DNA of 64,000 bases. Source: an uncultured Victivallis sp. (GTDB lineage: Bacteria; Verrucomicrobiota; Lentisphaeria; Victivallales; Victivallaceae). Positions 1-38,924 of this stretch are shown here, piece by piece. Every line of letters begins with the position of its first letter. Position 1 is the first letter of the stretch. The translations under genes and the position numbers were made by a program. The DNA is taken from the NCBI RefSeq assembly GCF_944389935.1, contig NZ_CALXOE010000010.1. One strand, written 5' to 3'. The notes under the pieces are model-generated. The model was not told the origin of the DNA, ran no database searches, and saw only the letters and a list, made by a program, of their open reading frames with translations.

Positions 1-36
1 GTCTGCGGCAGGGGGAACGTGAGGGAATGGATTGAC

Positions 37-82
37 AAAAAACTTCCCGGCGGGGAATCCCCGTCGGGAAGTTCGTTTTTTT
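37..82. terminator. Bidirectional intrinsic terminator downstream of the secretin pair
   Basis: Stem AACTTCCCGGCGGGG (41-55) / CCCCGTCGGGAAGTT (59-73) with one G-U pair, A-run before and T-run after. Confidence 0.8.
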
Positions 83-85
83 CTC

Positions 86-1711
86 TTAACGCCGATCCGG
101 ATCGAGACCGATCTGATCGAAGCCGTACTCATTTTCATCGATGGATTTGAGACCGAATTCATCGATTTTCCGCTTCGTCTCGGCGGAGAGTTTTTCGATC
201 TCGCCGGAGACCCGGGTTGTGGGAGTTCCGGGCTTGACGGTCAGGACCGCCACGATCCGGCTCTTTTTAACCGTCTCGCTCTCCCCCGAAAAGAGCCACC
301 CGAGCCCGGGGATATCCCCGAGAAACGGAACCTTGCTCACGCTGCGGACCAGGTCGGACTTCTCCAATCCTCCGATGTAGAAGACACTGCCCTTGTTGTT
401 GACCTGCAGCGTTGTCGCCAGCTCGGTCCGGCTGGTGCGCGGAGTCCCGTCGCTGTGGAATCCGAGCAGATTCGTGTTCTCCATCGCAACCCGGACGATC
501 GTCGACTCGCCGTAGACCTCCGGCAGAAGTTCCATCCGGAAACCGAACTCCGCGTTATTGGTTGTGCGCAGCCGGCTCTCTTTCACGGTCGTGACGGTGG
601 TTTCACCGGGTTTGTTCGCAGTCAGCGTCAAAGGCTCGCTCTGTCCCGGAATCGAAATGGTGATCTCGGACGTATCGTTCACGGTTTCCGCAATCTGCGT
701 CTCTCCATCACCGATGACGGGGAAACGGGTCACGCTCTCGATCGTGCCCACCGCCTTGTTCCAGACATTCAGCGTCCCGCTGGTCAACACTTTCGCCTTG
801 CTCTTGCTGACGAGAAAGTCCAGATACTTCGCATTCCACTTCGGATTGAAGTTGATGTAGTTCACATGGGCGTCCTTGACCATTTCCGTCGCGTTGCCGA
901 TCGTTCCGATCAGCGGATCCCATCCGTTCAGATAGGTCGCTCCCGCGGCGAAGAGATCAGCGCCGGGCCCGTTCTTCCACGCCTGGAAATCGACTCCGAG
1001 ATTGCCGTCGTTCTCGCTGTCGATCTCATAGATCGTGTAGGTGAACAGCGCTTCCGAAAGCGGCGTATCGTACTGCGCGAGCAGAGCTTCGATGTTCTTC
1101 TGAGAAATCGGCGTACAGAAGAACAGCAGTGCGTTCATGCCGTTGTCCGGTCGAACAGTGTCCACTCCGTCGAGTTCGACGGCGTCGTCGGCGTGCATGA
1201 TTCCGACCTGTTCAATCAGTTTCGCCAGCGTCGTCGCATCGAAATATTTCGCGTAGTAGACGAAGAAGCGGCGTCCGGCCTGCGCGGAGAGATCGGGTCG
1301 ATCCAGCATCTCCACGACCTGGTCGATGGTCATTCCGTTATCGAGTTTTTCAAAGCGGTACTGCTCCGCCGAGACGATCACCATTCCGGTGCCGTCGACA
1401 TATTTGATCGCTTCGACTTTCGTCTCGTTCGTGTCGATCCGCCGGGACCGGATGGCCGACATCAGGTACGGCCGGATCTCGTAGGGATCGGCGTGCTTGA
1501 GTTTGTACACTTTCGTATAGACATACGGGTCGTTGTTCGTATTGATGAACGTGATTTCGTCGGTCGACTTGTCGATCGACACGTTCAGCTGCGGCTGAAC
1601 CTGGGTCGGCAGCGCCGGCGGAGTCGGGATATCCACGGTTCCCGCACAGAGTTTCCCCGAAACGAGAAACGCGGCGAGAACACCCGATGTAAGTTTCGGA
1701 TTGAAAACCAT
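86..1711 (-). CDS. Secretin-family (type II/III secretion system protein D-like) outer membrane protein, paralog 2
   Basis: Signal-peptide-like N-terminus; N-domain VYKLKHADPYEI; barrel start YTIYEID..NLGVDF; C-terminal IGGLEK..KVPFLGDIPGLGWLF. Start set at ATG 1711 after AAGGAG. Confidence 0.8.
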   Translation of the reverse strand: MVFNPKLTSGVLAAFLVSGKLCAGTVDIPTPPALPTQVQPQLNVSIDKSTDEITFINTNNDPYVYTKVYKLKHADPYEIRPYLMSAIRSRRIDTNETKVEAIKYVDGTGMVIVSAEQYRFEKLDNGMTIDQVVEMLDRPDLSAQAGRRFFVYYAKYFDATTLAKLIEQVGIMHADDAVELDGVDTVRPDNGMNALLFFCTPISQKNIEALLAQYDTPLSEALFTYTIYEIDSENDGNLGVDFQAWKNGPGADLFAAGATYLNGWDPLIGTIGNATEMVKDAHVNYINFNPKWNAKYLDFLVSKSKAKVLTSGTLNVWNKAVGTIESVTRFPVIGDGETQIAETVNDTSEITISIPGQSEPLTLTANKPGETTVTTVKESRLRTTNNAEFGFRMELLPEVYGESTIVRVAMENTNLLGFHSDGTPRTSRTELATTLQVNNKGSVFYIGGLEKSDLVRSVSKVPFLGDIPGLGWLFSGESETVKKSRIVAVLTVKPGTPTTRVSGEIEKLSAETKRKIDEFGLKSIDENEYGFDQIGLDPDRR

Positions 1712-1728
1712 TTGAATCACTCCTTTCC

Positions 1729-3159
1729 TCATTCAGCCTTATTTTCTTTGTTCATTGCGGTCAATGTATCGATCATCTCGCCGGCGGCGGGAGTGGGAAG
1801 ATTCTCCGTCTCAACCGGTTTGGCGGTCATGGTTACAAAGACTCTCAGTTTGCTGTCGACCTTGCTTTCCGAACCGAACAGATACTTCAGCACCGGAATG
1901 CTTCCGAGAAACGGCATGCCGATATACTGTTCGACCATCACATGCTTGTCGAATGCGCCGACGAGTTTCTCCACGCCGGTGTCGAGCGTCAGACTCCCGG
2001 AAAAGCGGTTGCTTTCGATCGAGGCGTTTCCGACATTGTCGACTTCCGCCAGGGAGTTGATCGTCAGACTCCAGTTGCTCATGAGAGTGAGTTTCCCCTC
2101 GGACGGATCGGCGGTGAAGTTGATGGACGGAGCGTAGAACTCGAATTCAAAACTCGACTCCGCCAGCGCACCGATCGCGATGGTCTGATTCTCATCTTTC
2201 ACGATGTTCTGGAATTCCGGGGCAAACGTCAGCCGGAACACCCCTTCCCCGGTGTCGTTCGCCGCCGGATCGAAGCTGTTGATCAGCGTAAGCGATCCGG
2301 ACGACGCGGTCCACGCCTTTCCTTTCTGTGCGAGCATCCGCAGAAAGGTTGCATCGATGTTCGGAGCAACCAGAATGCCGCCGATGCCGTTCACGGAATT
2401 CGGCAGGAAACCGAGAATGCTTTCAAACGCCTCCGGTCCGAGCGAATCGAAATCCGCATGCAGATCCGCGAAGTTGAATCCGGTCGAAAGCAGCTGCGCC
2501 CCGGGTCCGTTCTTCCAGGAGAGATAATCGATTCCGAGTTCACGGAAATCATTATCGCTGACGACGTAAACATCGAACTTCACCTCAAGCTGCGGGACCG
2601 GACGGTCGAGCGTTTTCAGCAAAGAGAGATACGCCTCCCCCTGGGATTTGGAACTCTTGAAATAGAACAGATTGCTCGGGCCATCGTAGAAAGACGCACC
2701 CTCCCCTCCCGCGGAGGTGAACACCTGTTCGAGCGCCTTGTACATCGTTTCGCTGCCGCGATGAACCGGTGCATAGACCCAGCGGCTGATGCCGTCACCC
2801 TCGATGCGCGCCCCGGATTCGTCGACTTTCGGGGATGGATAGTCGAGCGTGGCGATCATCTCGTCGACCCAGGGGAGAAACGTACTCCCGGTGGAGACGA
2901 CGAGAAACTGTTTGCCGCCGCTGGAATAATCGACGCTCTGCACTCGTGACTGGCTGTCGAATCGTTTGACCGCTCCGCGCACAAACGGCATCAGGTCGTG
3001 AGCCCGGACATTTTTGAGTTCATAGACTTTGGTGGTCATGTAGTGCTGATTGCGATCCTCGTTGAATACGATGGTCCGCTGATTGCCCTCTTCCGCGCAG
3101 AGCAGCGCGGGCAGCGTGCACAACAGGGCCGCGAGCTTCCATGGGTTGATGCATTTCAT
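1729..3159 (-). CDS. Secretin-family outer membrane protein, paralog 1
   Basis: Signal peptide; VYELKNVRAHDL N-domain; LEVKFDVYVV..ELGIDY; GMPFLGSIPVLKYLF secretin signature; AGGAGG RBS. Confidence 0.75.
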   Translation of the reverse strand: MKCINPWKLAALLCTLPALLCAEEGNQRTIVFNEDRNQHYMTTKVYELKNVRAHDLMPFVRGAVKRFDSQSRVQSVDYSSGGKQFLVVSTGSTFLPWVDEMIATLDYPSPKVDESGARIEGDGISRWVYAPVHRGSETMYKALEQVFTSAGGEGASFYDGPSNLFYFKSSKSQGEAYLSLLKTLDRPVPQLEVKFDVYVVSDNDFRELGIDYLSWKNGPGAQLLSTGFNFADLHADFDSLGPEAFESILGFLPNSVNGIGGILVAPNIDATFLRMLAQKGKAWTASSGSLTLINSFDPAANDTGEGVFRLTFAPEFQNIVKDENQTIAIGALAESSFEFEFYAPSINFTADPSEGKLTLMSNWSLTINSLAEVDNVGNASIESNRFSGSLTLDTGVEKLVGAFDKHVMVEQYIGMPFLGSIPVLKYLFGSESKVDSKLRVFVTMTAKPVETENLPTPAAGEMIDTLTAMNKENKAE

Positions 3160-3229
3160 TCGGCTACCTCCTGGTTTACGGGTTGACCCAATGGCGCCCG
3201 ATGTCGGACGCCGCGGATATCAATGGTTG

Positions 3230-3246
3230 AGCAGGAAGAATGCCAA
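3230..3246 (-). promoter_or_regulatory. Sigma54-type (-24/-12) promoter of the secretin pair
   Basis: Minus strand TTGGCATTCTTCCTGCT = GG-N10-GC in TGGCA..TGCT context; 16/17 identical to the motif at 14782-14798. Confidence 0.75.
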
Positions 3247-3335
3247 CTTGTAAAAAACGGATGGTTTTCTGCATTTTCCCCCGGAAAACGGCGGCCCGGC
3301 TTCGGATTCCGCTCGAATTCAGGACGTTTCGTGCG

Positions 3336-3375
3336 ACAAAATTGTGTAAGAAAAATCTCCGTTTAACAAAATTGT
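3336..3375. promoter_or_regulatory. Two ACAAAATTGT palindromic sites (candidate enhancer/UAS)
   Basis: ACAAAATTGT at 3336-3345 and 3366-3375, 30 bp apart, ~90-130 bp upstream of the -24 element. Confidence 0.6.
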
Positions 3376-3426
3376 CCTCCCGCAAGCCGGACAGCTTCAA
3401 TGGCTTATCCCGTACATTGCGGGAGG
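3376..3426. other. Stem-loop just downstream of the carboxylase operon (possible terminator or stability hairpin)
   Basis: CCTCCCGCAA (3376-3385) / TTGCGGGAGG (3417-3426); only a weak U-tract on the minus strand. Confidence 0.45.
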
Positions 3427-3438
3427 AGAGAGATACGG

Positions 3439-4272
3439 TCAGAGCTCGGGGAGCAGCATCCGCAGCAGAATCGTGATCATTCCGCCGGGAGTCTCAAGCT
3501 CCTCAAGAATCGTGAAGTGGTTGCGCCCGGCCAGCGTGAACGCGCCGCCGGGAAGTTTCGCCGCCGCCCGATGCCGGGCGAAATCCCAGCTCTGGCGCTG
3601 CAGTTCCGGCAGCTCGTCCGAACCGCAGACCGCGAACAGCGGTTTTTCCGACAGAGGAAGTCGAAGCGGACTCAGGCCGGCGACCTCTTCGGGTTTCAGA
3701 AGAAGTTTATCGTTCAGGCAGCAGAGGCGGATCGGCTCCAGATCGAAGATGCCGCTGATCGCGAGGACACCGGTTACGCCCGGTTCGTCGGCCGCCATGG
3801 CCGCGAGATGCCCGCCCGCCGACCAGCCTGCGACGACGATCCGGGAACGGTCGAATCCGAGAGAATCGGCGTGTTCCCGCAGCCAGCGCAGCGCATCGCG
3901 AATCTCCGTGACGATTCCGGCCAGATTCTGTTCCGGCGCCAGCGTATACCCCGACAGCGCCACCGAAATTCCATGATGCAGCGCCCCCGCCGCCAGAAAC
4001 CGGAACGTCTCCTTGCGCCGCATCTGCCAGTAGCCGCCGTGGATGAACACCAGAAGCGGCGCGCCGGGAGAACCGGCACGGAAAAAATCGATGCGCTGCC
4101 GCTCCCGCGGCCCGAAGCGCAAGTTCAGCTCCCCGGGATATCGCTCCGCCAGCAGACGGCTGCGCGCCTCGAATCCCACGAGAATCCGCGCGCTGTCGGC
4201 GACCGCGCGCGTATTGTCGTAAGCCGCGTCGAGTTCTTCACGGGTCAGGAAATCACGATAGAGCGCTGTCAT
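3439..4272 (-). CDS. Alpha/beta hydrolase, arylformamidase/esterase-like
   Basis: HGGYW oxyanion motif, GWSAGGHL nucleophile elbow, C-terminal GRNHF His; overlaps the end of atzF. Confidence 0.85.
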   Translation of the reverse strand: MTALYRDFLTREELDAAYDNTRAVADSARILVGFEARSRLLAERYPGELNLRFGPRERQRIDFFRAGSPGAPLLVFIHGGYWQMRRKETFRFLAAGALHHGISVALSGYTLAPEQNLAGIVTEIRDALRWLREHADSLGFDRSRIVVAGWSAGGHLAAMAADEPGVTGVLAISGIFDLEPIRLCCLNDKLLLKPEEVAGLSPLRLPLSEKPLFAVCGSDELPELQRQSWDFARHRAAAKLPGGAFTLAGRNHFTILEELETPGGMITILLRMLLPEL

Positions 4273-6007
4273 GGGATGCCTCTCGATGCGATTTCCGTTT
4301 CCGTTCTTTCACCCGGACGCGCCAGTCGGCGACCTCGGAGATGTCCGGCGCATACTCCGCGATGACCGCCTCTCCGATGAATCCCGGCACCCGCCGTCCG
4401 TCCGCCAGCTCCAGGGTGCCGAGCCCGAGCGGAGGGCGGATACCGGCGACAAATTCGGCGAAAGAGTCCGCTTCAAGCTCATAGAGCTCCACATAGCAGG
4501 ATACGCCCCCCCTGCCGGTTCGCAGCAGGGCCGGGCGGGCGCCCCCCTCCTCCAATTCGTACATCCGATAGCATGGAGCGGTTTTCGCGCAGCCGAGAAA
4601 GCGCGCGCCGAGCGCCTCGAGCTCCGGATGCAGCGGCATCCCGGCGAGATGCGCACCGCAGACCGCGATCGGAAACCTCTCCGCACTCCGGAAACGGCGC
4701 GCCGCTTCCAGAAGCCTGTAATCGTCGAACGCTTTCCCCACCAGCGTGATTCCGAAAGGAAGATCTCCGGCGCGATCCGCCGGAACAGCCAGCGCCGAAC
4801 AGTCCAGCAGGTTCATATAATTGGTGTAGTATCCGAGATTGCTGTTGAGCCGGATCGGATCGGCTTCGACCTCGTCGATCCGGTAGATGGTTCCGGCGGT
4901 CGGCGTGAGAATCAGATCCACCGCCGCAAACTGCGCATCCGCCGCCGCCCTGCACTCCTGAAGCCGGTACATCGCCCGGAAAACCTCCGATGGATGCGGC
5001 GTCCGCTCCGGCGTGATGATCGACCGGATCACCGGCAGCACCGAATCCGGATGTGTTTCAATGAACTCCCCGACCGCCGCGTAGCGCTCAAACACCCACG
5101 GCCCCTCGTAAAGCAGCCGTGCCGCCGTCAGAAACGGGGTGAAATCGATCTCCACTTTTTCGCCGCCCGCATCCTGCATTCTCCGCACCGCCCGCCGGAA
5201 CGCCTCCCGGTACTCCTCCCGGCCGAAGAACGCGAGATCCTCCTCACGCGGGACACCGAATTTCCAGTGACGCGGCAGCGGATCACGTTCCGGCAGAACC
5301 CGGCTGTAGGCATCCTCCGGGTCGAAGCGGGCGGTTGTTTCCAGCAGGATTCCGGCATCCTCGAGATTCCGGGCGAAGATCGAAACGCAGTCGAGCGAGC
5401 GGCAGGCCGGCACTACGCCGCGGCAGCTCAGGACTCCCCGGCTCGGCTTGACTCCGACAAGTTCATTGAACGCCGCCGGAACCCGGCCGGAGCCCGCCGT
5501 ATCGGTTCCCAGAGAAAAACTGCACAGATCGTACGCCAGCGCCGCGGCCGATCCGCTGCTCGATCCGCCGGAAACATATCCCGGCGCCAGACGGTTCGGT
5601 GCCGCCCCGTAAGGAGAACGCACGCCGACCAGACCGGTGGCGAACTGATCCATATTCGTCTTGCCGAGCGGAACGGCTCCGGCTTCGATCAGGAGTTCCA
5701 CCACCCGCGCGGAACGCTCCGGCCTGTAGCTGTAGTCCGGACACCCCGCCGTCGTCGGCAGCCCGGCCACATCGATGTTGTCTTTCACGGCAAACGGAAT
5801 CCCGTAAAGCGGAAGTTCCTCCGGCGAAGATGCTTCAAGTCCGGCGAGCCGAACCTCCAGCTGCTCCCGGTCGATCAGAGAAATCCAGATCCCGTCCGGA
5901 GCGGCGGCACATGCGTCGAGCAGTTCCGTAAGGACGCGACGCGGGGTCTTCGACCCGTTTCGATACGCCCGCCTGAGGGCGGCGATCGACAATTCGCAAC
6001 TTCTCAT
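4253..6007 (-). CDS. atzF: Allophanate hydrolase
   Basis: LYGIPFAVKDNIDVAGLPTTAGCP, GGSSSGSA, GTDTAGSGRVPA amidase signature; C-terminal IAVCGAHLAGMPL domain. Confidence 0.95.
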   Translation of the reverse strand: MRSCELSIAALRRAYRNGSKTPRRVLTELLDACAAAPDGIWISLIDREQLEVRLAGLEASSPEELPLYGIPFAVKDNIDVAGLPTTAGCPDYSYRPERSARVVELLIEAGAVPLGKTNMDQFATGLVGVRSPYGAAPNRLAPGYVSGGSSSGSAAALAYDLCSFSLGTDTAGSGRVPAAFNELVGVKPSRGVLSCRGVVPACRSLDCVSIFARNLEDAGILLETTARFDPEDAYSRVLPERDPLPRHWKFGVPREEDLAFFGREEYREAFRRAVRRMQDAGGEKVEIDFTPFLTAARLLYEGPWVFERYAAVGEFIETHPDSVLPVIRSIITPERTPHPSEVFRAMYRLQECRAAADAQFAAVDLILTPTAGTIYRIDEVEADPIRLNSNLGYYTNYMNLLDCSALAVPADRAGDLPFGITLVGKAFDDYRLLEAARRFRSAERFPIAVCGAHLAGMPLHPELEALGARFLGCAKTAPCYRMYELEEGGARPALLRTGRGGVSCYVELYELEADSFAEFVAGIRPPLGLGTLELADGRRVPGFIGEAVIAEYAPDISEVADWRVRVKERKRKSHREASHDSALS

Positions 6008-6031
6008 CGAGTCTCTCTCCTTTCCCTCTGC

Positions 6032-6075
6032 CCGTCCCGCGTCCCGAACCGGACCGGCGTGGAAACGCGGGACGG
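6032..6075. other. Intercistronic stem-loop between uca and atzF
   Basis: CCGTCCCGCGT (6032-6042) / ACGCGGGACGG (6065-6075), 11 bp perfect stem in a 75 bp gap. Confidence 0.55.
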
Positions 6076-6082
6076 ACGAGGT

Positions 6083-9000
6083 TCAATTCGTCTTTACAGC
6101 GAACAGACACTGTCCGCTCTTGACCTCGTTCCCGGCGGCACAGAAGATCCGGACGATTTCGCAGTCGGACTCCGCGGCTACCGGAATTTCGGTTTTCATG
6201 CTCTCGAGCACCGCCAGAATCTCTCCGGCGCGAACTCGTCTGCCGGGCTCGCTGACGTTCAGTTTCCAGAGACTGCCCGCAACCGGCGAGTAAACCCCGC
6301 TCTCACCGGGTTTCAACTCGGCCTCCTCCGCGGGCGCGGCGCTTTCGACCGTATGGCTCTCGAAAGTGAGCTGGCCATTGGCGATCCAGCGCTCTTTCTC
6401 CTCTTCAAAGGCCCGTTTCCGCTTCGTCTCGAAGGCTTCGATGGAAGCGGCGTTCTCCTCGAGGAACTTCTCATATTCCTGAATATCGAACACGCTCTCT
6501 TCCATGCGGATATGGTATTTCCCCGCGATGAAGTCGCGCCGGATTTTCAGCAGTTCATCCGCCTCGACCGGGAAGAACCGGACCTGATCGAAGAATCGGA
6601 GCAGATAAGGTTTGCCCTCCACAAACTCCGGCGTGACGTTGAAGCGGTTCCACATCTGAACCGTCCGTCCGACGAACTGGTAGCCGCCAGGCCCCTCCAT
6701 TCCGTAAACGCACATGTACGCGCCGCCGATGCCGACGGCGTTTTCGGGCGTCCAGGTCCGGGCGGGGTTGTACTTGGTTGTGACCAGACGGCGGAGCGGA
6801 TCCAGCGGCGTCGCCACCGGCGCGCCGAGATAGACGTCTCCGAGACCCATTACGATGTAATTCGCGTCGAACACGATCTTTGCGACCTCCTCGACGGAAT
6901 CGAGCCCGTTGATCCGCCGGATGAATTCGATGTTGTTCGGGCAGCACCAGGGGGCGTCCGGACGAACCGTGCTGACGTACTTCTGAATCGCGAGACGTGT
7001 CGCCGGGTCGTCCCAGCTCAGCGGCAGATAGACCGTGCGGGTCGGAACCGAGCGGATCGTCTCCGTTTTGAGTTTTTCGGCCAGAGCGGCGATCAACTTC
7101 AGGAGCTCCTCCTGCGTCATCTTCGCCGGATCGAAATGAATCTGAATCGAACGGATTCCCGGCGTGATGTCGAGAATCGCCGGCAGGTGCATCTCCTCAA
7201 GTTTGAGCATCCACGCATGCGCCGTAAAGCGGAGTCGCAAATCGATGACCGGCGGTCCGAACTCCAGCAGGAAATTCGCGTCTCCATCCTGACGGCAGAC
7301 GATGCGGGACATCGCGTCCTCACGATGAAACTCCGCCAGAACCGGCGACCCGGAAACCGTGCCGACAGGTTCCGCAACCGGGTGATCCGCCTTTTCCGGG
7401 TGCTCCAGAATCGCCTCGAGCGCCTCGCGACGTTCAGCAGCCTGCGCCGGAGTGACGGGAATGAACTTCACCTTGTCTCCGCTGCGGAGCTGCCCGACTT
7501 TCCAGAGATCCGCCGTGATGATCGTCGCAGGACAGACGAACCCGCCGAGGCTCGGCCCGTCCTTGCCGAGAATCACCGGCATGTCGCCCGTGAAGTCGAT
7601 CGTTCCGACGGCGTAGGCGTTGTCATGCAGATTGGACGGATGCAGTCCGGCCTCTCCGCCGTCCGGACGCGCCCACTTCGGCCGGGGACCGACCAGCCGG
7701 ACGCCGGTACGCGAGGAGTTGTAATGGACCTCCCATTCCGCACGGAAGAACTCCTCGATGTCCTGATCCGTGAAGTAGTCGGGCGCGCCGTGCGGCCCGT
7801 AAAGAACGGCGATCTTCCAGCTGTTCCCGATGGACGGAACGGCACCTGCCGCCGGAGACAGCGGTTCGAAAACCTTCCAGTTGCCGATATGGAGCACGTC
7901 GCCCGCGGCGAGCGCCCTCCCCCCGTGTCCGCCGAAACGGCCGAGCGTAAACGTCGAACGGCTGCCGAGGTACTCCGGCACGTCGATTCCGCCGGCGACG
8001 GCGAAATAACAGCGCTGCCCGCAACGGGTTGTGCCGACTTTGAGCACATCGCCCTTCTTCGCGGCGATCGGCGTGTTCCGGGAGATCTCCGTTCCGTTCA
8101 GTGTCGCCGGAAACTCTCCGCCGGTCAGAGCAAAGAGCGCATCCGTATTGAAGCGGAGCGAGGCGCCCGAAAGCGTCATCTCCAGCCCCGGAGCCTCCGG
8201 CGCGTTTCCGACGATCCGGTTGGCCAGCCGGAAACTGTACGCATCCATCGGCCCCGACGGCGGAACGCCGACCGCCCAGTAACCGAGACGGCCGGGATAA
8301 TCCTGCACCGTGGTCTGCGTTCCCGGGGAGAGAATTTCAAACGTCGGCGCAGAATAGGCATATTCTTTCAGCAGCCAGGTTCCGGCCCGCCCCTCGCGGA
8401 ACGGCGCCATGCCGAGGACGTCGCGCAGCAGCAGAAGATTGGTTTCAAATCCGGCGATCTCGGTCGCCTTGAGCGCTTCTTCCGCCTTGCGGATCACCTC
8501 GGCGCGGTCTCCGCCTTTCACGATGATCTTCGCGAGCAGCGGGTCGTAGAACGCGCTGACTTCAGTTCCGGTCGAAATCCAGGTGTCGCACCGGACGCCC
8601 GCTGGAAACGCCGCGCGCGTGACCAGTCCGCTCGACGGCTGGAAGTTCCGGCCGGGATCCTCCGCGTAAATCCGGAACTCCATGGCCGCCCCCTCGGGAC
8701 GGAAACTCTCCCCCGGCCGGAACGGACTCTCTCCGGCGGCGAGCCTCACCATCCACTCGACCAGATCGATTCCGAACACGGACTCCGTGACGCCGTGCTC
8801 GACCTGCAGCCGCGTATTGACTTCCAGAAAATAGAAACGATCCGCCTCGCTGTCGTATATGAATTCGACGGTTCCGGCAGACCGATAAGCGACCCCCTCC
8901 GCGAGCCGGCGGGCCGCCTCATGAAGCGCGCGCCGGGTCGCGTCCGGCAGATTCGGCGCGGGGGTCTCCTCGATCACTTTCTGGTTGCGCCGCTGGACGG

Positions 9001-9685
9001 AACAGTCGCGTTCGCCGAGAATCGCAACGCCGCCCTTTCCGTCGCCGAAAATCTGCACCTCGACGTGGCGGGCGCGCTCGATGTACTTCTCCAGAAACAG
9101 CCCCGAATCCTTGAAGTTGTTGCGGCTCAGGCGTCCGATCCGTTCAAACCCCTCCGCAAGCTCCTCATCGTTCCGGCAGATGCACATCCCGATTCCGCCG
9201 CCGCCGGCGGTGCTCTTGAGCATCACGGGATAACCGATTTCGGCAGCGGCCCGTTTCGCCGCCTGAACCTCATCCAGAAGTCCGCTCCCGGGGACAAGCG
9301 GAACACTCCAGCGTTCCGCAAGTTCCCGCGCCTTGTGCTTGAGCCCGAAGTCGACGAGCTGCTCCGGCGTCGGGCCGATGAATTCGATCCCGTTCCCGGC
9401 GCAGAGCCGCGCAAAAGAGGCGTTTTCGCTCAGAAAACCGTAACCGGGGTGAATCGCCTGCGCTCCGGTACGGCGGGCGGCGTCAAGAATCGCCTCCACA
9501 TTCAAATAGCTCTCCGCGGCCGATGCGGGGCCGACCCGCACCGCCTCATCCGCCTGCAGGACGTGGGCGGCGGTCGCGTCCGGGTCCGAATAGACGGCGA
9601 CGGACCCCACCCCCATCTTTCTGAGCGTGCGGATGATGCGGCAGGCGATTTCGCCGCGGTTTGCAATCAATACTTTCGTAAACAT
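6083..9685 (-). CDS. uca: Urea carboxylase family protein, probably guanidine-preferring
   Basis: Biotin carboxylase (ANRGEIA, HPGYGFLSEN), carboxyltransferase (GLHPSNLHDNAY, PENAVGIGG, GPGGYQ) and C-terminal biotinyl domain (ESMKTE). Confidence 0.95.
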   Translation of the reverse strand: MFTKVLIANRGEIACRIIRTLRKMGVGSVAVYSDPDATAAHVLQADEAVRVGPASAAESYLNVEAILDAARRTGAQAIHPGYGFLSENASFARLCAGNGIEFIGPTPEQLVDFGLKHKARELAERWSVPLVPGSGLLDEVQAAKRAAAEIGYPVMLKSTAGGGGIGMCICRNDEELAEGFERIGRLSRNNFKDSGLFLEKYIERARHVEVQIFGDGKGGVAILGERDCSVQRRNQKVIEETPAPNLPDATRRALHEAARRLAEGVAYRSAGTVEFIYDSEADRFYFLEVNTRLQVEHGVTESVFGIDLVEWMVRLAAGESPFRPGESFRPEGAAMEFRIYAEDPGRNFQPSSGLVTRAAFPAGVRCDTWISTGTEVSAFYDPLLAKIIVKGGDRAEVIRKAEEALKATEIAGFETNLLLLRDVLGMAPFREGRAGTWLLKEYAYSAPTFEILSPGTQTTVQDYPGRLGYWAVGVPPSGPMDAYSFRLANRIVGNAPEAPGLEMTLSGASLRFNTDALFALTGGEFPATLNGTEISRNTPIAAKKGDVLKVGTTRCGQRCYFAVAGGIDVPEYLGSRSTFTLGRFGGHGGRALAAGDVLHIGNWKVFEPLSPAAGAVPSIGNSWKIAVLYGPHGAPDYFTDQDIEEFFRAEWEVHYNSSRTGVRLVGPRPKWARPDGGEAGLHPSNLHDNAYAVGTIDFTGDMPVILGKDGPSLGGFVCPATIITADLWKVGQLRSGDKVKFIPVTPAQAAERREALEAILEHPEKADHPVAEPVGTVSGSPVLAEFHREDAMSRIVCRQDGDANFLLEFGPPVIDLRLRFTAHAWMLKLEEMHLPAILDITPGIRSIQIHFDPAKMTQEELLKLIAALAEKLKTETIRSVPTRTVYLPLSWDDPATRLAIQKYVSTVRPDAPWCCPNNIEFIRRINGLDSVEEVAKIVFDANYIVMGLGDVYLGAPVATPLDPLRRLVTTKYNPARTWTPENAVGIGGAYMCVYGMEGPGGYQFVGRTVQMWNRFNVTPEFVEGKPYLLRFFDQVRFFPVEADELLKIRRDFIAGKYHIRMEESVFDIQEYEKFLEENAASIEAFETKRKRAFEEEKERWIANGQLTFESHTVESAAPAEEAELKPGESGVYSPVAGSLWKLNVSEPGRRVRAGEILAVLESMKTEIPVAAESDCEIVRIFCAAGNEVKSGQCLFAVKTN

Positions 9686-9694
9686 GATCGTTTG

Positions 9695-10345
9695 TCACTC
9701 CTCTTGATCCCAGATGATCATCTCGACCGGAGTCGGATTGTAATCATTGCAGGGATTGTTCAACTGCGCACAGTTCGAGACGAGAACCAGAACATCCATC
9801 TCCGCAAGCAGATCGACGTACTTTCCGGCACCGGAAATGCCGTCAGCGAATTCCAGATGCCCGCTGTCGTCGAGCAGGACTTTCGTGAAAAAATTCAGAT
9901 TGCAGGTCTGGTCGCGCTTGCTCATCCCCGGCGTCTCCAGAAACTTCCGGACAAAAGTATCGCGGCAGCTGTGCATGTAACGGGTCCGATCGGTGTAACG
10001 GATCGTGTTCCCCTCCGCAGAGCAGCCGCTGCCGAGCGTATCGTGTTCGCCGCAGGTGTCTGCCACCACCCGGAACATGACGTTGTCGTCGTTGGAGCGG
10101 ATTTCTGTTCCAAGTTCGATCAGCGCCTTGCGCTGAGCCGCCAGCGTATTGTTGACGTTGTAGCGCTCGGCCGGGTTGTGCGCATTGTAGAGAAGCATGT
10201 CGACGGACTGGTTGCCGCAGAGATCGATGATCCGCAGGATCTGCCCTTTCTTCACGGTGTGCATCCAGCCGGTTCCGGCCTTGACGGTTTCCGAATAGAC
10301 GGCGGAAGCCCTGTCGCGCGGGATGTCCAACAGCTTATCGTTCAT
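9695..10345 (-). CDS. cgdB: DUF1989 urea carboxylase-associated protein, CgdB-like copy 2
   Basis: GNQSVD..YNA, DTCGEHDTLGSGCS, YMHSCRDTF, VSNCAQLNNPCN. Confidence 0.8.
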   Translation of the reverse strand: MNDKLLDIPRDRASAVYSETVKAGTGWMHTVKKGQILRIIDLCGNQSVDMLLYNAHNPAERYNVNNTLAAQRKALIELGTEIRSNDDNVMFRVVADTCGEHDTLGSGCSAEGNTIRYTDRTRYMHSCRDTFVRKFLETPGMSKRDQTCNLNFFTKVLLDDSGHLEFADGISGAGKYVDLLAEMDVLVLVSNCAQLNNPCNDYNPTPVEMIIWDQEE

Positions 10346-10360
10346 GTTCTTCTCTCCATT

Positions 10361-11005
10361 TCAGTTATCCCAGATGATCATTTTGACCGGCGTCGGATCG
10401 TAGCCGTTGCAGGGATTGTTCAGCTGCGGGCAGTTCGACACCAGAACGATGACGTTCATCATCGCCTGCAGTTCGATGTATTTCCCCGGAGAGGAGATGC
10501 CGTCGGCAAAATTGAGCCGGCCCTCCGCGTCGAGCGGAACGTACATGAAGAAATTCAGATTGTTGACCTGATCGCGTTTGTCCATCCCCGGCGTCGCAAG
10601 CAGTTTGGCCAGAAACGTCTCACGGCAAGCATGCATGTAGCGCGTATGGAACCCGTAACGGATCATATTGCTTTCGCAGGAACAGGCGCTGCCGAGCGTA
10701 TCGTGATCTCCACAGGTGTCGGCCACCACCTTGAGCATGACGTTGTCGTCGTTGGAGCGCAGCTCGGTTCCGAGCCCGACGAGGGCGTTCCGCTGCGCTT
10801 GAACCGTCTGCTGCACGCTGTAACGCTCATAAATGTCATCGGCGTTGTAGAAGATGGTGTCGACCGCCTGATTGCCGTTCACATCGACGATCCGCAGGAC
10901 CTGTCCCTTTTTCACGGTGTGCATCCATCCGTCACCGGCCTTGACGGTTTCGACATAAACGGCATCGGCCTCTTTGCGATTGCTTTCAAGATATTCCGTA
11001 ACCAT
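10361..11005 (-). CDS. cgdB: DUF1989 urea carboxylase-associated protein, CgdB-like copy 1
   Basis: GNQAVD..YNA, DTCGDHDTLGSACSCESN, YMHACRETF, VSNCPQLNNPCN. Confidence 0.85.
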   Translation of the reverse strand: MVTEYLESNRKEADAVYVETVKAGDGWMHTVKKGQVLRIVDVNGNQAVDTIFYNADDIYERYSVQQTVQAQRNALVGLGTELRSNDDNVMLKVVADTCGDHDTLGSACSCESNMIRYGFHTRYMHACRETFLAKLLATPGMDKRDQVNNLNFFMYVPLDAEGRLNFADGISSPGKYIELQAMMNVIVLVSNCPQLNNPCNGYDPTPVKMIIWDN

Positions 11006-11014
11006 GACATCACC

Positions 11015-11746
11015 TCACGCAAGATAAAGTTCAGTTGCAATGAAACCCCGCTCGTTCTCCGGACACCAGGTGAAACAGGGATCCTCTTTTGTGCCGGGTT
11101 CGCAGCGGTAAACCGTCGCCTTGATCGGCTTGCGCGGATATTCGGTCGCGGGAGAAAGCGGATGCATACCGGTATCGAGAATCACCAGCGTATCGATCTC
11201 CGCGCGCAGGTCGACGTAATCGCCGGGTTTGGAGTTGCCCTCGATGAAACTCATGCCACCCTTGTCATCCACAATGACTTTGGAGAAGAAGTTGATGATC
11301 TCCGTGAAGTCGCGTTTGGTCATGCCGTGCTTGCCCAGTTCGACGAGCAGAGAGTCGTAACCGTTCCGGTAGAAGTCGTTGTGCGCCTCCTGATACTCCT
11401 TCTTCCCGAATTTCTTCTCGATGAGGGAGGCGTGGGCGCAGCCGCAGAGCATGTCGTGCCATCCGCAGGTGTCCGCGGGAACGCTCATGAGAATCCGCCC
11501 CATGTCGGAGTAGATGCAGCAATCTTTCGTGAGGCGGCAGATATGTTGAATCTTCAGGGTGTCCCCGAGATTGAACCGTTCCGAGAAATTCGCGGCGTTG
11601 TAGAACATGGCCGAAACGTTTCCGCCGCCCTCGATATCGGTCAGCCGCAGAGCCTGGCCCCGGCGAATGATGCGCGAGTAGTTCCAGCCTCCGGCGATGG
11701 TGGTTTCCGTGATGATCCGATCCGTGATGTCGCTGTTCATAATCAT
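11015..11746 (-). CDS. cgdA: DUF1989 urea carboxylase-associated protein, CgdA-like
   Basis: GGNVSAMFYNA, DTLKIQH, YSDMGRILMS, CGWHD, INFFSKV, HPL motifs typical of the first subunit. Confidence 0.85.
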   Translation of the reverse strand: MIMNSDITDRIITETTIAGGWNYSRIIRRGQALRLTDIEGGGNVSAMFYNAANFSERFNLGDTLKIQHICRLTKDCCIYSDMGRILMSVPADTCGWHDMLCGCAHASLIEKKFGKKEYQEAHNDFYRNGYDSLLVELGKHGMTKRDFTEIINFFSKVIVDDKGGMSFIEGNSKPGDYVDLRAEIDTLVILDTGMHPLSPATEYPRKPIKATVYRCEPGTKEDPCFTWCPENERGFIATELYLA

Positions 11747-11762
11747 ACCTCCTGTTCAGGTT

Positions 11763-12662
11763 TTACAAAAATGTCTTGTCGCCGACCATGTTGACGACTT
11801 TGAATTCACACTCGTCTTCCCGCTTGACGGGGGGACGGATCAACTTGTCGATGTGCTCCCGGGTTGCGAGGAATTCCGGTTCGAGCAGCATCCGCGAACG
11901 GCGCGGCCGCGGGAGCGGAACTTCGATGAGTTCATTGATTTCGCCCGGATTCGCTTTCAGAGCCAGAATGCGGTCGGAGAGATAGACCGCCTCGTCCAGA
12001 TCGTGCGTCACGAAAATGATCGTGATGTCGATGTTCCGCCAGACTTCGAGCAGATAGTTCTGCATCTGAGTCCGGGTCTGCGCGTCGAGCGCCCCGAACG
12101 GTTCGTCCATGAGCAGAACGCGCGGCTGAGGCGCGAGGGCTCTGGCGATCGCCACACGCTGCTGCATGCCTCCGGAAAGCTGTCCGGGATAGTAGTCCGC
12201 ATACCGGGCCAGCCCGATGATGTCCAGCCACTGCAGCGCGATGTTTTCGGCGGTGTCGCGATCCTTGCCGATCGATTCCAGCCCGAACATGACGTTCCGG
12301 CAGACGGTCAGCCAGGGGAAGAGCGTGTACTTCTGAAAGACCATCCCGCGTTCCGCGCCGGGAGCGACGACCGGTTTGCCGTCCAGCAGAATTTCCCCGG
12401 AAGTCGCCGTCTCGAGTCCGGCCAGAATGCGGATCAGCGTCGACTTTCCGCAGCCGGAGGGACCGATGATCGAGAGGAACTCCCGCTGATGGACCTGAAA
12501 CGAAATATCTTTCAGGACAATCTGGTTTTTTCCGCTGGAAGTCGGAAACTCCTTGAAGAGATTCCGGGTTTCCATGATGACCGGGCGGCGAACCAGCCGG
12601 GCGAACCGGTCACGCACCTCGGGACTCATCATTTGTTTGTAATCAGGCAGAGTGCTGTTCAT
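11763..12662 (-). CDS. ABC transporter ATP-binding protein (TauB/SsuB-like)
   Basis: [29 protein letters not shown]; start set at ATG 12662 after AGGAGG. Confidence 0.93.
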
Positions 12663-13749
12663 CTCTTTTCCTCCTCTCCTCTTTGGAAAGAACGATCGAA
12701 AACACCTGGTCGCGGGGACCGAAAATCTCCTCCGCCGCCCGGTAGAAAATCCCCTTGTGCTTGCTCTCCCACGGGAAGATCTGGCGGCCGAACCACGCGA
12801 GGAACATATCGCAGAACAATCCGATGCAGCCGATGATGATGATCGCGGCATACACATTGGAAAAGTCCCGGTATTTCGCCTGCTGGTTGATGAACCAGCT
12901 GATTCCGGAGCTCGTTCCGACGACCTCCGCGACGATCAGATAGGTCCACGCCCATCCGAGCAGAATCCGCATATCCTTGTAGAGCCGCGGGAGAACACTC
13001 GGGATGATGACTTTCATGAGGATTCTTCTCCGGGATGCCCCGAGAGTCTGAGCCGCTTCGATCAACGCGCCGTCCGCGCTGCGGGTGGTATTGGCCACCA
13101 TCGGCAGCTGCTGGAAAAAGGTTCCGATGAAGATGATCGCAATCTTCGGCGCATCGTTGATTCCGAGGATCGCCACGCACAGTGTCGCAAACACCGGCGC
13201 GGGGAAATAACGGAAAAATTCGATGAACGGTTCGATCAGACGCTCGAAAAACGGAAATGTCCCACAGAGAATCCCCAGCGGGACACCGAAGAGCGAAGAG
13301 ATCAGAAATCCGAGAAACACAATCCGGATGCTGTGCCCGATGCTCTCGTGAAACCACGCCTCCCCGTCGCGGCGCGGCGGAGTCAGAAACGCGGTCACCA
13401 GCGACCGGGCAACCTGATGCGGCGCAGGGAGGTAAGCGGGATTCGCCCGCTCCCCCCGCATGATTTTTCCGCCGCTCGAGGCCAGTTCCCGATTTTCCTC
13501 TTCAAACGCGCTGCGCTCGATAAGGTCGCCCGGGGCGCACAGGAAGCTGTCCCCCGCGTCCGTCACCCGAACCAGCGGATGATAGAGAAACGGGACGTAG
13601 CTTACCAGGCACCAGAGCAGGAGCGGCAGTGCGAACGAGAGAAACAGCAGAATATATTCCTGACGTCTGGTTAATTTTTTTCGTATGGCAAAACAGCCAA
13701 CGTTCTGCATTTTCATCATGAACTTCCTCAATCCGGAACCGTGAATCAT
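12643..13749 (-). CDS. ABC transporter permease (TauC/SsuC-like)
   Basis: Hydrophobic helices, EAAQTLGAS loop, [11 protein letters not shown]; ATGA overlap with upstream gene. Confidence 0.92.
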
Positions 13750-14738
13750 TTCTGACGGGACAGATACTCTTTCGTAAAGATCGGCGTGATATGCCGGTTC
13801 ACATCGACGCTTTTCTTATAGATCTTATTCCCGAAGAAGAACTTGTCGACAATTTCCGAAGAACCGTAAATGGAGTCGAATCCCGGCGTTTTACGGAAAC
13901 GGGCCAGCGCCTCCTCGGCGGTGAGAAAACGAGTCCCGTCGATATAGTCTCCATATTTTTTCTCAGAAACCCCGACCCGGTCCGCCATGATTTTGATCGC
14001 TTCCGGCCGGGTTGCCGGATCGTTCAGGAAATCGATGACATCGTACCAGGCGGCAATGACTTTCTTCCATTCATCGCGATGCTTCATCAGACTTTCCGTC
14101 GAAACCGTCAGCACATCGTAGATGATTCCGGGCTCGTCCGCGCTCGTATAGATGGCTTTTGATCCCTTCACGAGTTCAAGCGCGTTGCCCGAGTGCGGCT
14201 GCCAGGCGACCACGGCATCGACCTCGCCGGTCTCGAGGATCTGCGCGGCCTGATGGGTCGGCATATTCACGAGTTCCACGTCCGACTCTTTCAGTCCGTT
14301 TTTCGTAAGAGCATTGATGAGAAGCGCATGACTCAGACAACCGAATTCAACCCCGACCTTTTTGCCCTTGAGTTCCTTGACGGAATTGATTCCGGGGCGG
14401 GCGACGATTTTGTCGTTGCCGTTGCTGTAATCGTTGATGAGGATGATGACGTTCCGCGCGCCGGTCGCATTGAGCACCATCGCGTCGCCGTTGGAGAGTC
14501 CGACCGCATCGATTTTCCCGACGGAAAACGCATCAAGTGAGGGCCCGTACTCGAACCACTCGAGTTTGACCTTGACGCCGTGTTTCTGGAAAAATCCCTT
14601 CTTGTCGGCGATCTCCCAGGCGGTCCAGCCCGGCCAGTCGCTGTATCCGATCCGGAGCGTCGGCTGATCGGCCGCCATCATCACCAGAGGAGCAATGGCA
14701 CTGAGGATTCCAGCTATGACAAATTTAAAACCACTCAT
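13746..14738 (-). CDS. ABC transporter substrate-binding protein (NMT1/SsuA-like, urea carboxylase-associated)
   Basis: Signal peptide, IGYSDWPGW, DYSNGNDKIV, AWQPH; start ATG 14738 after AAGGAGG. Confidence 0.9.
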   Translation of the reverse strand: MSGFKFVIAGILSAIAPLVMMAADQPTLRIGYSDWPGWTAWEIADKKGFFQKHGVKVKLEWFEYGPSLDAFSVGKIDAVGLSNGDAMVLNATGARNVIILINDYSNGNDKIVARPGINSVKELKGKKVGVEFGCLSHALLINALTKNGLKESDVELVNMPTHQAAQILETGEVDAVVAWQPHSGNALELVKGSKAIYTSADEPGIIYDVLTVSTESLMKHRDEWKKVIAAWYDVIDFLNDPATRPEAIKIMADRVGVSEKKYGDYIDGTRFLTAEEALARFRKTPGFDSIYGSSEIVDKFFFGNKIYKKSVDVNRHITPIFTKEYLSRQK

Positions 14739-14781
14739 TTTCAACCTCCTTTTCTCATGAACGGTTGGATGCCCTCTTTGC

Positions 14782-14798
14782 AGCAGGATGAATGCCAA
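14782..14798 (-). promoter_or_regulatory. Sigma54-type (-24/-12) promoter of the guanidine/urea operon
   Basis: Minus strand TTGGCATTCATCCTGCT = GG-N10-GC, ~45 nt upstream of the first start codon. Confidence 0.78.
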
Positions 14799-14844
14799 CC
14801 TTGTTTTTGAGGGGGAACAGGTCGATACAGCCCGATTTTGTTTT

Positions 14845-14886
14845 ACAATTTTGTTCAAACCGGAGATCGCATACGACCAATTTTGT
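14845..14886. promoter_or_regulatory. Two ACAAWWTTGT-type sites (candidate enhancer/UAS)
   Basis: ACAATTTTGT at 14845-14854 and CCAATTTTGT at 14877-14886, 32 bp apart; same motif as 3336-3375. Confidence 0.55.
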
Positions 14887-15233
14887 CTAAACGCCTCCGG
14901 ATTCGATCAACCGGGGAACGGCTCGCTCCGACCGCCGTCGGCGACAGCCGGATCGCGGGCCGAGACCGTGAACGGCCGCATATCGGACCGGGTTTGGTCG
15001 GGCGGAGAATCCGGATATGCCCCCGGCGTTTTCAGAAAGCGGAATTTACATTTTCCGGGATTGCGTTCCGGAAATTCCGGAGGCCGGCCGCCCCGCCTCC
15101 ATTTTCCCGCTTTTCCGCGGTGCCGGGCGAAAAAAGGAAAAAAATCCGCCTCCGGGGGTGAAAAAAAACAAATCTGGTGTATATTATTTCAATTTCCCGT
15201 TTCTAAACAAGCAACTTCGCAAGGAGAACCAAC

Positions 15234-15938
15234 ATGAGTTGTCCGTATCAGTGCTCGCACGAAGTCGAGCAGATGTGCCGCGTCGCCAAAGGCGTCAAAC
15301 ACGGCCCGGCCCCGATTCCCGAGGAGGGGAAGTGGGTCAAATCCAAGCAGATCTCCGATATTTCCGGCCTGACCCACGGCGTGGGCTGGTGCGCTCCCCA
15401 GCAGGGCGCCTGCAAACTCACGCTCAACGTCAAGGACGGCGTCATTCAGGAAGCTCTCGTCGAAACCCTCGGCTGCTCCGGCATGACTCACTCCGCCGCC
15501 ATGGCGTCGGAGATTCTCCCCGGCAAGACCATTCTCGAGGCTCTGAACTCCGACCTCGTCTGCGACGCCATCAACGTCGCCATGCGTGAACTCTTCAAAC
15601 AGATCGTCTACGGCCGTACCCAGACCGCGTTCAGCGAAGGCGGACTGCCCATCGGCGCCGGTCTTGAAGACCTCGGCAAGGGACTTCGTTCCCAGGTCGG
15701 GACCATGTTCTCCACCCTGGAAAAGGGACCGCGTTACCTCGAGATGGCCGAGGGATACGTCCTCGAGCTCGGACTCGACGAGAACAGCGAGATCATCGGC
15801 TACAAGTTCGTCCACCTCGGCAAAATGATGGAAGCCATCCGCAAGGGCGTCGAACCCGCCGAAGCATTCAAGGCCAATGTCAAGAGCTACGGCCGCTTCG
15901 ACGAAGCCGTCAAGAAAATCGACCCGCGCAAAGAATAA
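15234..15938 (+). CDS. NifU/IscU N-terminal-like Fe-S scaffold family protein (GGGtGRT partner)
   Basis: GWCAPQQGACKL, GCSGMTHSAAMA, LVCDAIN Cys pattern; AAGGAG RBS. Confidence 0.85.
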   Translation: MSCPYQCSHEVEQMCRVAKGVKHGPAPIPEEGKWVKSKQISDISGLTHGVGWCAPQQGACKLTLNVKDGVIQEALVETLGCSGMTHSAAMASEILPGKTILEALNSDLVCDAINVAMRELFKQIVYGRTQTAFSEGGLPIGAGLEDLGKGLRSQVGTMFSTLEKGPRYLEMAEGYVLELGLDENSEIIGYKFVHLGKMMEAIRKGVEPAEAFKANVKSYGRFDEAVKKIDPRKE

Positions 15939-15951
15939 GGAGTTCATGACA

Positions 15952-31211: not shown

Positions 31212-31339
31212 CTTCGTCTCCAATTCTTTCCAACAGTCAAAACTTTCGATGTGCAACAAAAAAATATCTGCATGACAGCTGACGCGACAGGCCTCGGATC
31301 AATGTATCATGCAGGGGGAAAAGAGTCAAGCGCAGTTTT

Positions 31340-34411: not shown

Positions 34412-34482
34412 TCAAACCTCCTGCTCCTGTTGCCAATTCGTCGGCACAATCAATTTTCATTGCACTCTTTCACGCGATGATT

Positions 34483-34513
34483 TACAATATTATCACGAGT
34501 GATATAATTCAAG
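34483..34513 (-). promoter_or_regulatory. Promoter/operator unit for the GH-A and GH-D genes
   Basis: Minus strand TTGAAT-N17-TATTGT with TATCAC-GA-GTGATA palindrome in the spacer. Confidence 0.65.
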
Positions 34514-34569
34514 TTGACTTTGAAAAAAAGTAACATAAATTTGACTGGGAGCGGGAGCTCCGGAGGCGC

Positions 34570-35346: not shown

Positions 35347-35395
35347 ATTGATACTGTAGCGGGAAAGCGACATTTTGCAAGCGGTAAAATGATCG

Positions 35396-35418
35396 AACAA
35401 TCACTTTTTTTGATTGTT
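35396..35418. promoter_or_regulatory. Candidate DeoR operator in divergent intergenic region
   Basis: AACAATCA-N7-TGATTGTT perfect inverted repeat; an extra GATTGTT half-site lies nearby. Confidence 0.55.
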
Positions 35419-35526
35419 TACAAGATTTTTTTCTGATTTTGACCGGTTTCGATTGTTTTCCATTCAGATACAGCTACACTAAAGACGCAGCAGAATCCAT
35501 CCATCAGTAAATCGAAAGGAGAAAGG

Positions 35527-38855: not shown

Positions 38856-38865
38856 AACGCAGAAG

Positions 38866-38902: not shown

Positions 38903-38924
38903 CTGATCGCTGAAGATCGATCGC

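Follow-up and report, generated by a model that had tools for sequence, protein, structure and literature searches.

Secretins are the export gates of type II secretion systems (T2SS), type III secretion systems (T3SS), type IV pili (T4P) and filamentous phages, each made of one protein docked to an inner-membrane machine. What, then, do two different secretins do whose genes form a unit of their own under a promoter of the nitrogen-assimilation type? The question is raised by positions 86-3375 of a 64,000-nucleotide stretch (the window) of contig NZ_CALXOE010000010.1 (C10), from an uncultured gut Victivallis sp. (assembly GCF_944389935.1, here G000; genome size 3.64 Mb, 99.7% complete, 58.8% GC). 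The region holds two secretin genes, B followed by A, with their control sequences (Table 1); the nearest named homologues are those of Victivallis vadensis, with 62% identity. The best single reading, though a tentative one, is that B and A form a stand-alone, nitrogen-inducible outer-membrane portal. Its regulatory part is strong as judged from the sequence; the transport part is what we infer from domain content, gene order and neighbourhood.

Nitrogen control of the secretin pair

A preliminary description of the window, made from its letters alone, had proposed that the secretin pair and the urea/guanidine-carboxylase operon carry near-identical sigma54-type promoters with GG-N10-GC spacing, each preceded by two ACAAWWTTGT-type sites, and that one enhancer-binding activator serves both. 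We found both 17-mers exactly as described, TTGGCATTCTTCCTGCT at 3246-3230 and TTGGCATTCATCCTGCT at 14798-14782, identical at 16/17 positions. The paired sites, 30 and 32 bp apart, were also present, one carboxylase-side copy being the one-mismatch CCAATTTTGT. The TTGGCATTCNTCCTGCT pattern had only these two matches, both in the window (0 expected, 100 shuffles) and in the whole 3.64 Mb genome. Exact ACAAWWTTGT occurred 3 times in the window against 0.08 expected, and ACAAAATTGT only 10 times genome-wide. The loose core TGGCA-N7-TGC was not above chance in the window (2 found vs 1.59 expected), so the evidence comes from three other features: identity that extends beyond the core, location ahead of start codons and the presence of paired sites. 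The B-A promoter stands 72 nt upstream of the B start codon and is among only 12 intergenic, correctly oriented matches to the core genome-wide. Transcription is predicted to start near 3219, 60 nt ahead of that codon. No sigma70-like promoter was found in positions 1-3600.

The chance-level count of the loose core is also what would be seen if the likeness of the two promoters were a local accident. The 16/17 identity could stem from local duplication, leaving a functionless promoter copy and a pair that is constitutive or decaying. Three observations make this explanation highly improbable: neither open reading frame (ORF) is broken, and the two are conserved and co-evolve; the site pairs mark nitrogen genes specifically; and promoter and sites are conserved at orthologous pairs with different flanks in at least five other genomes.

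The conservation emerged from a promoter census over 52 B-A loci, in which pairs of the window pair's orthogroup are termed A1-type and the others A2-type or A3-type. A sigma54 promoter stood upstream of 8/11 A1-type pairs, in differing genomic contexts, and of 0/17 A2-type pairs; the 24 A3-type pairs gave 1 doubtful case. Orthologous B-A pairs with 50-97% identity have retained a TGGCA-N7-TGC promoter and ACA-N4-TGT-type sites ahead of B, and one promoter-bearing A1-type pair from another family, at 37% identity, has two sites 29 bp apart. At most promoter-bearing orthologous loci the flanks are unrelated and no carboxylase operon is adjacent. This retention indicates that nitrogen/sigma54 control of the A1 orthogroup is old, selected and independent of carboxylase synteny.

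A sigma54 promoter requires rpoN, which the genome contains (PF04552, 202 bits; C2:96964-97440) together with six full enhancer-binding activators. The same design of paired sites and a -24/-12 element was found at glnN (type III glutamine synthetase, GSIII), gltBD and gdhA. The glnK-amtB genes (a PII gene, then an ammonium transporter gene) have a sigma54-type promoter with one clear activator site only. Strong site pairs spaced 28-34 bp occurred genome-wide only in the gltB/glnN region, at the two window promoters and at one promoter-less coding site. The paired sites are near-exclusive to nitrogen-gene promoters and not frequent elsewhere. The glnN and gltB genes themselves have divergent sigma54 promoters around one symmetric, shared site pair (G000:C2:10579-10739).

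One of the six activators is a candidate regulator of the ACAAWWTTGT sites, chosen by its position alone: a GAF-AAA+-HTH protein encoded by the last gene of the gltBD operon (G000:C2:18805-20340). NifA is its best match, although the score of 464 bits falls short of the NifA cut-off of 529, and its place at the end of gltBD implies autoregulation. When nitrogen is low, such a NifA-like activator would bind the two sites, which lie about three helical turns apart, and open the sigma54 complex at the -24/-12 promoter. The sequence evidence (rpoN, shared paired sites, conserved promoter) gives good support to a common activator for the two units and to their place in a nitrogen regulon, and with these to nitrogen control of the B-A pair.

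The putative regulon resembles NtrC/NifA-type regulons (glnA, glnK-amtB, nif) in its -24/-12 promoters, its two sites about 30 bp apart and 55-130 bp upstream, and its targets, which comprise glutamine synthetase (GS), glutamate synthase (GOGAT), PII-AmtB and urea/guanidine use. It differs in the site, ACAAWWTTGT being unlike the enterobacterial NtrC site TGCACC-N5-GGTGCA, and in the candidate activator, which has a GAF sensor instead of the receiver domain of NtrC. It further differs in including an outer-membrane secretin pair. Our literature search returned no description of a sigma54 nitrogen regulon in Lentisphaeria; the ACAAWWTTGT pairs would provide its first definition at the sequence level.

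Two further observations concern sigma54 control in this genome. A paralogous GAF activator gene (C3:3952-5481) also lies behind an aminotransferase gene and has ACAAATTTGT upstream (C3:2642). Additionally, dnaK, clpB and an activator gene have good -24/-12 matches, e.g. TGGCACGCTCTTTGC (C39:2765-2779, C71:6600-6614, C62:845-859). These and other -24/-12 promoters are without nitrogen-type upstream sites, which suggests a separate sigma54-dependent stress regulon.

The preliminary description had also linked the pair to the guanidine/urea operon. The orthologous carboxylase operon of V. vadensis-like genomes does have a sigma54 promoter with two sites 31 bp apart. However, sigma54-controlled A1 pairs occur in genomes or loci without the carboxylase operon, including genome G178, where the carboxylase binding-protein gene was not found. 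A specific tie is thereby weakened, and guanidine/urea use alone probably does not account for the role of the pair. Synteny of secretin pairs with the urea carboxylase gene (uca), which that description had raised, fared no better. A uca-adjacent pair in V. vadensis-like genomes was considered as the ortholog and rejected; it is a different paralogue (~40% identity) and has no strict sigma54 promoter. Adjacency to the carboxylase genes is thus no orthologous, conserved trait of the A1 pair.

Structure and evolution of secretins B and A

Both proteins scored above the Pfam Secretin cut-off of 27.5 bits (PF00263; A 74.4, B 28.9), and they are 23.7% identical to each other, in agreement with the paralogous secretin pair first described. 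Family profiles searched against the PDB linked A to GspD (E 6e-21) and B to GspD/ExeD (E 7e-35). In Foldseek searches, the predicted models (pLDDT 62 for A, 72 for B) matched the secretins GspD, InvG, PilQ and pIV with E 3e-16 for A and 1e-16 for B. The equivalog cut-offs were not reached: TIGR02517 (GspD) gave 90.8 bits for A and 25.3 for B against 351, and TIGR02515 (PilQ) gave 51.4 and 26.9 against 284. Over the GspD, PilQ, MshL, SctC and HofQ equivalogs, the scores were far under the cut-offs. We class A and B within the secretin superfamily but outside all of its named functional families.

The domain map of B, drawn from VIA alignments, comprises a signal peptide, a GspD N1-like domain (~39-108), a second ring-building domain (~122-189), the secretin barrel domain (~190-450) and a C-terminal helix. 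The VIA alignment to GspD N1 had Z 9.6 and a root-mean-square deviation of 2.4 over 67 residues, and that to a HofQ domain had Z 8.5 and 1.8 over 64 residues. A has a signal peptide, two N domains, a secretin domain with low-confidence insertions and a C-terminal helix. Alignments of the B model to GspD structures begin at GspD residue ~97-100, within N1, and only ~16 mature residues in B and ~30 in A, unstructured, precede the first ring domain. The models thus indicate that A and B are without the N0 docking domain.

The C-terminal barrel domain, the P-x-L-x-x-I-P-x-L-G-x-L-F-type motif and the KH-like ring-building domains are shared with GspD/PulD (TIGR02517), PilQ, InvG, pIV and RcpA. In contrast to these secretins, A and B lack N0 and score below the cut-offs, always occur as tandem, diverged paralogues with several pairs per genome, have no machine genes beside them and include one orthogroup under sigma54 nitrogen control.

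The study genome contains three B-A pairs (C10, C6 and C33), with identities of ~33-35% for A-A and B-B comparisons and ~23% for A-B. The preliminary description had noted neither these sister pairs nor the order-wide family to which they belong. B lay directly upstream of A on the same strand in 52/52 loci examined. Of 201 genomes from the phylum, 51 had the A family, and every one of these belongs to the order Victivallales; tblastn gave 1-7 matches in each, with some genes split into two matches. Among 1.84 billion representative proteins, only 424 were relatives of the B family at E <= 1e-3. The distance matrices of A and B correlated with r 0.967 (permutation maximum 0.168), indicating that the pairs duplicated and diverged as units. 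The constant pairing and the co-evolution argue that A and B work together, and B-A can be regarded as an obligate, co-evolving module. Literature searches for paired, heteromeric or orphan secretins, and for secretins in Lentisphaerae or Planctomycetes, returned nothing relevant. A phage origin of the pIV kind was dropped; the surroundings hold no phage genes and the pairs show order-wide conservation.

A two-chain prediction of A(24-541) with B(23-476) scored 0.38, the best of 3 controls scoring 0.00, with at least 72% contact agreement between runs and a partner pLDDT of at least 61. The verdict was weak support, by a mark that 58/80 solved complexes and 2/110 mismatched pairs reach and with scores <=0.60 more often wrong; the prediction was not used as evidence. 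Its pass may reflect a mere likeness to solved homo-oligomeric secretins.

A family of small lipoproteins (~150 aa, with a lipobox and no Pfam hit) is encoded beside pairs in 15 loci (L061, L063, L065, L067, L074, L078, L082, L084, L085, L088, L090, L092, L093, L097 and L101), upstream of A3-type and downstream of A2-type pairs. It resembles DUF3887/DUF4019 by language-model features only. These proteins could be pilotin-like helpers or accessory subunits. A small lipoprotein encoded beside a secretin pair recalls the secretin-pilotin systems (PulS/AspS, TadD, MxiM), from which this family differs in the missing Pfam hit and in that its sole homologue in the study genome (C54:6025-6507) is unlinked to any pair.

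Filament machines, exporters and uptake

In the preliminary description the genes were an orphan pair. With respect to machine genes this was borne out: searches of the window's contig for the T2SS/T4P ATPase (PF00437), the platform protein (PF00482) and prepilin motifs were negative, and no ATPase, platform or pilin gene forms an operon with a pair at any of the 52 loci. With respect to the carboxylase operon it was not, as the pair lies directly downstream of that operon on the same strand. Elsewhere in the genome, which has 12 Secretin-domain matches in 10 genes, T2SS and Tad gene sets (C36 and C50) each have their own secretin. Type IV pilus genes lie on C49, and PilM-like genes on C33 accompany two large tandem secretins, a candidate T4P pair. 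No secretin gene adjoins a further, Tad-like set on C59. By gene content, the three B-A pairs are surplus to these machine gene sets.

In the C33 cluster (31167-40808 (+), loci L003/L004), a PilM-like gene and two Pfam-less genes are followed by the tandem secretins of 863 and 841 aa; tandem duplication of secretins has thus also occurred in a type IV pilus-like cluster of this lineage.

The gene sets bear on whether a type IV filament machine (T2SS, T4P or Tad) with genes elsewhere in the genome uses B-A as its gate in the outer membrane. Expressed under nitrogen limitation, such a gate would be the outlet for pseudopilus-driven cargo, for instance scavenging enzymes or prepilin-type binding proteins. 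All characterised secretins serve filament or secretion machines or phage export. About four machine gene sets, extra PilT-like ATPases, at least 29 prepilin-type proteins and the C59 cluster without an adjoining secretin would offer possible partners. Nevertheless, both proteins are without N0, through which secretins dock to GspC, PilP, PrgH or pI, and 0/52 loci have a machine operon partner. Furthermore, genome scans found the paired-site sigma54 signature on no pilin, ATPase, platform or other machine gene, and the T2SS and Tad clusters are each already supplied with a secretin. We consider a machine gate unlikely, though it is the main rival of the stand-alone portal.

The neighbours of the sister pairs point towards transport. 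An APA basic amino acid/polyamine antiporter gene (TIGR00905, 510 bits) lies downstream of the C6-type pair in five Victivallis genomes, the study genome among them, and in one genome from another family; genome G049 has neither the C6-type pair nor the antiporter. In two families, FeoA-FeoB genes stand downstream of pairs, and a third genus has FeoB upstream of one. Genes of NMT1-type ABC systems come after a pair in each of G010, G006 and G049; the pair in G010 and G006 is a different paralogue, divergent from a carboxylase operon. Other neighbours are amino-acid permeases, one with a pyridoxal phosphate (PLP) decarboxylase in G124, and CitMHS/EamA transporters.

A single secretin in another setting was observed outside the window, at G000:C4:111477-116519 (+). 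This protein (490 aa, PF00263 141 bits) heads an operon that continues with an HlyD-type membrane-fusion protein, an ABC ATPase and a MacB/FtsX permease, with starts and stops touching or overlapping. Its make-up suggests a tripartite ABC pump in which a secretin takes the position of TolC. The order of secretin and membrane-fusion protein held in 16/16 loci with downstream sequence, from at least eight families of the order (loci L103-L122). Its conservation links secretins of this lineage to transporters other than T2SS. Secretin-MacB operons were not described in the literature that we searched.

This operon offers an analogue for another role of B-A, in which the pair would be an outward duct linked to exporters or antiporters of the inner membrane and would release a product such as polyamines or other end products of nitrogen metabolism. 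The antiporter beside the C6-type pair, and the permease and PLP decarboxylase beside the G124 pair, would also suit such a duct. However, the B-A pairs have no adjoining membrane-fusion or adaptor gene, the FeoAB and NMT1 ABC systems are importers, and the window pair appears to be co-regulated with genes of uptake and assimilation (amtB, an ABC importer, GS/GOGAT). Export is therefore improbable as the function of the pair.

Inward transport of macromolecular nitrogen sources (peptides, proteins, DNA) into the periplasm during starvation is a further option. Secretin lumens are wide, HofQ and PilQ secretins act in DNA uptake ("DNA uptake porin" is the NCBIfam label for HofQ), and macromolecule uptake has been proposed for related bacteria of the Planctomycetes-Verrucomicrobia-Chlamydiae (PVC) group. 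DNA uptake, however, needs a pseudopilus, and none is linked to or co-regulated with the pair. The unit contains no peptidase or nuclease, and the recurring neighbours are small-solute transporters, all of which makes a macromolecule portal quite improbable.

We return to the stand-alone portal for nitrogenous solutes, which the preliminary description had put forward together with a gate for a pilus-like machine elsewhere; the portal has gained circumstantial support and is unproven. Its components read from the sequence are the -24/-12 promoter with two ACAAWWTTGT sites and the apparently N0-less secretins, always in the order B-A, duplicated as a unit and without machine neighbours. In the last and weakest step, the two proteins would assemble, probably together, into a regulated uptake channel that works without a filament machine, raising outer-membrane permeability for nitrogenous nutrients and feeding inner-membrane importers. 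The setting would be a lineage with seven classical channel families not found and with sister pairs beside solute transporters. Searches of the study genome for TonB-dependent receptor barrels (TBDR), Porin_4, OprB, Porin_O_P and OMP_b-brl gave no match, nor did searches of nine genomes of the genus for Porin_1 and FadL; BamA and TolC, by contrast, were detected.

Several points weigh against a stand-alone uptake portal. We know of no secretin through which solutes are taken up, and the canonical members have a wide channel with a gate. The monomer models are moderately confident, and the status of the gate is not readable from them. The candidate activator was assigned by gene position only. 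The majority of pairs stand alone as two-gene units in unrelated surroundings. Multi-pass membrane proteins were not significantly enriched beside pairs (12/49 vs a whole-genome background of 15%, p 0.054; 9/49, p 0.31, when PMT_2 glycosyltransferases were left out), and the loci counted are related to each other. A within-locus control gave 12/49 vs 3/22 (p 0.24). We therefore rely only on the conserved synteny of particular arrangements. The search covered seven channel families, and the lineage may have unrecognised porins.

The proposed channel would resemble nitrogen-regulated or substrate-linked porins in being induced together with inner-membrane importers of nitrogenous solutes, whose genes in some cases lie alongside. 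FmdC-type amide/urea porins are encoded with urea/amide uptake genes, and cyanobacteria have NtcA-controlled porins. Those porins are 14-18-strand, monomeric or trimeric beta-barrels, whereas the present case would be a secretin-fold multimer for which solute conduction is only proposed.

A broader and more doubtful proposal is that Victivallales use N0-less, hetero-paired secretins as regulated uptake channels, one pair per importer class, with A1 as a nitrogen-starvation-inducible "porin". The importer classes would be those for iron, basic amino acids/polyamines and NMT1-type ABC substrates. Such channels, if real, would be the first case of a secretin that works inward and without a filament machine, possibly also the first natural heteromeric secretin, and an uptake role, once demonstrated, would define a new functional class of secretins. 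The order has a family of two-paralogue secretins that appears to lack the docking domain, is machine-unlinked and multi-copy, and has one orthogroup in a putative nitrogen-starvation regulon. Autonomy of these pairs would call for rethinking outer-membrane permeability in PVC-group gut bacteria without recognisable porins, would widen the secretin repertoire and would bear on gating, heteromer assembly and nutrient scavenging. Since V. vadensis is culturable, the predictions are directly testable.

Layout of the locus

Table 1. Features of the secretin locus and related promoters. Positions refer to the window; activator-site positions are measured from the TGGCA of each promoter.
Feature	Position	Strand	Activator sites	Remarks
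Bidirectional intrinsic terminator hairpin	41-73	both		15-pair stem, 10 GC pairs, T-runs on both strands
Secretin A	86-1711	(-)		541 aa; Pfam PF00263; ATG and ribosome-binding site at 1711
Secretin B	1729-3159	(-)		476 aa; Pfam PF00263
Sigma54-type -24/-12 promoter of B-A, TTGGCATTCTTCCTGCT	3230-3246	(-)	-130 / -100	GG-N10-GC
Two upstream activator sites of B-A, each ACAAAATTGT	3336-3345 and 3366-3375		-100 and -130	30 bp apart
Hairpin past esterase stop codon	3377-3424	(-)		dG -32.7 kcal/mol, z -2.8
Urea/guanidine-carboxylase operon	3439-14738	(-)		Pfam and NCBIfam
Sigma54-type promoter of carboxylase operon, TTGGCATTCATCCTGCT	14782-14798	(-)	-89 / -57	
Carboxylase-operon activator sites, ACAATTTTGT and CCAATTTTGT (one mismatch)	14845-14854 and 14877-14886		-57 and -89	32 bp apart
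gltB promoter			-85 / -55	
glnN promoter			-86 / -56	same two sites as gltB
gdhA promoter			-108 / -78	
glnK-amtB promoter			-79	single clear site

The longest ORF for secretin A would span 86-1732; we chose the start at 1711, where a ribosome-binding site is present. The strong terminator placed at the end of the unit in the preliminary description is the hairpin 41-73, which closes both the B-A unit and the convergent thioredoxin-like gene. The second hairpin, 3377-3424, is likely the terminator of the carboxylase operon; this hairpin and the B-A promoter are what separates the two units. Within 3355-3445 (-), the U-rich tract after the hairpin doubles as the distal activator site for the secretin promoter, an overlap of terminator and enhancer.

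The carboxylase operon encodes an NMT1/SsuA-type binding protein, a permease, an ATPase, three DUF1989 proteins, urea carboxylase, allophanate hydrolase and a trailing esterase (3439-4272). It includes a TIGR02712 match of 1806 bits (cut-off 1304). The DUF1989 genes (9695-11746 (-)) number three, one UAAP1-like and two UAAP2-like, where two is usual. An Rfam scan of positions 1-16000 returned zero riboswitches or other RNAs, with no ykkC-type leader on the operon at the gathering threshold; sigma54 control appears to stand in place of a guanidine riboswitch. A plus-strand ORF of 2507 aa (4271-11794), antisense to the carboxylase genes, was rejected as a shadow ORF of high-GC coding DNA.

The neighbours of the B-A locus are the carboxylase operon, the thioredoxin-like gene, and DUF6311, LacI and GH2 genes. 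The thioredoxin-like gene lies just left of the window (G000:C10:11952-12467 (+)), and a homologue with 42% identity is encoded directly downstream of a pair in G124, a genome of another family (L100:10793-11293).

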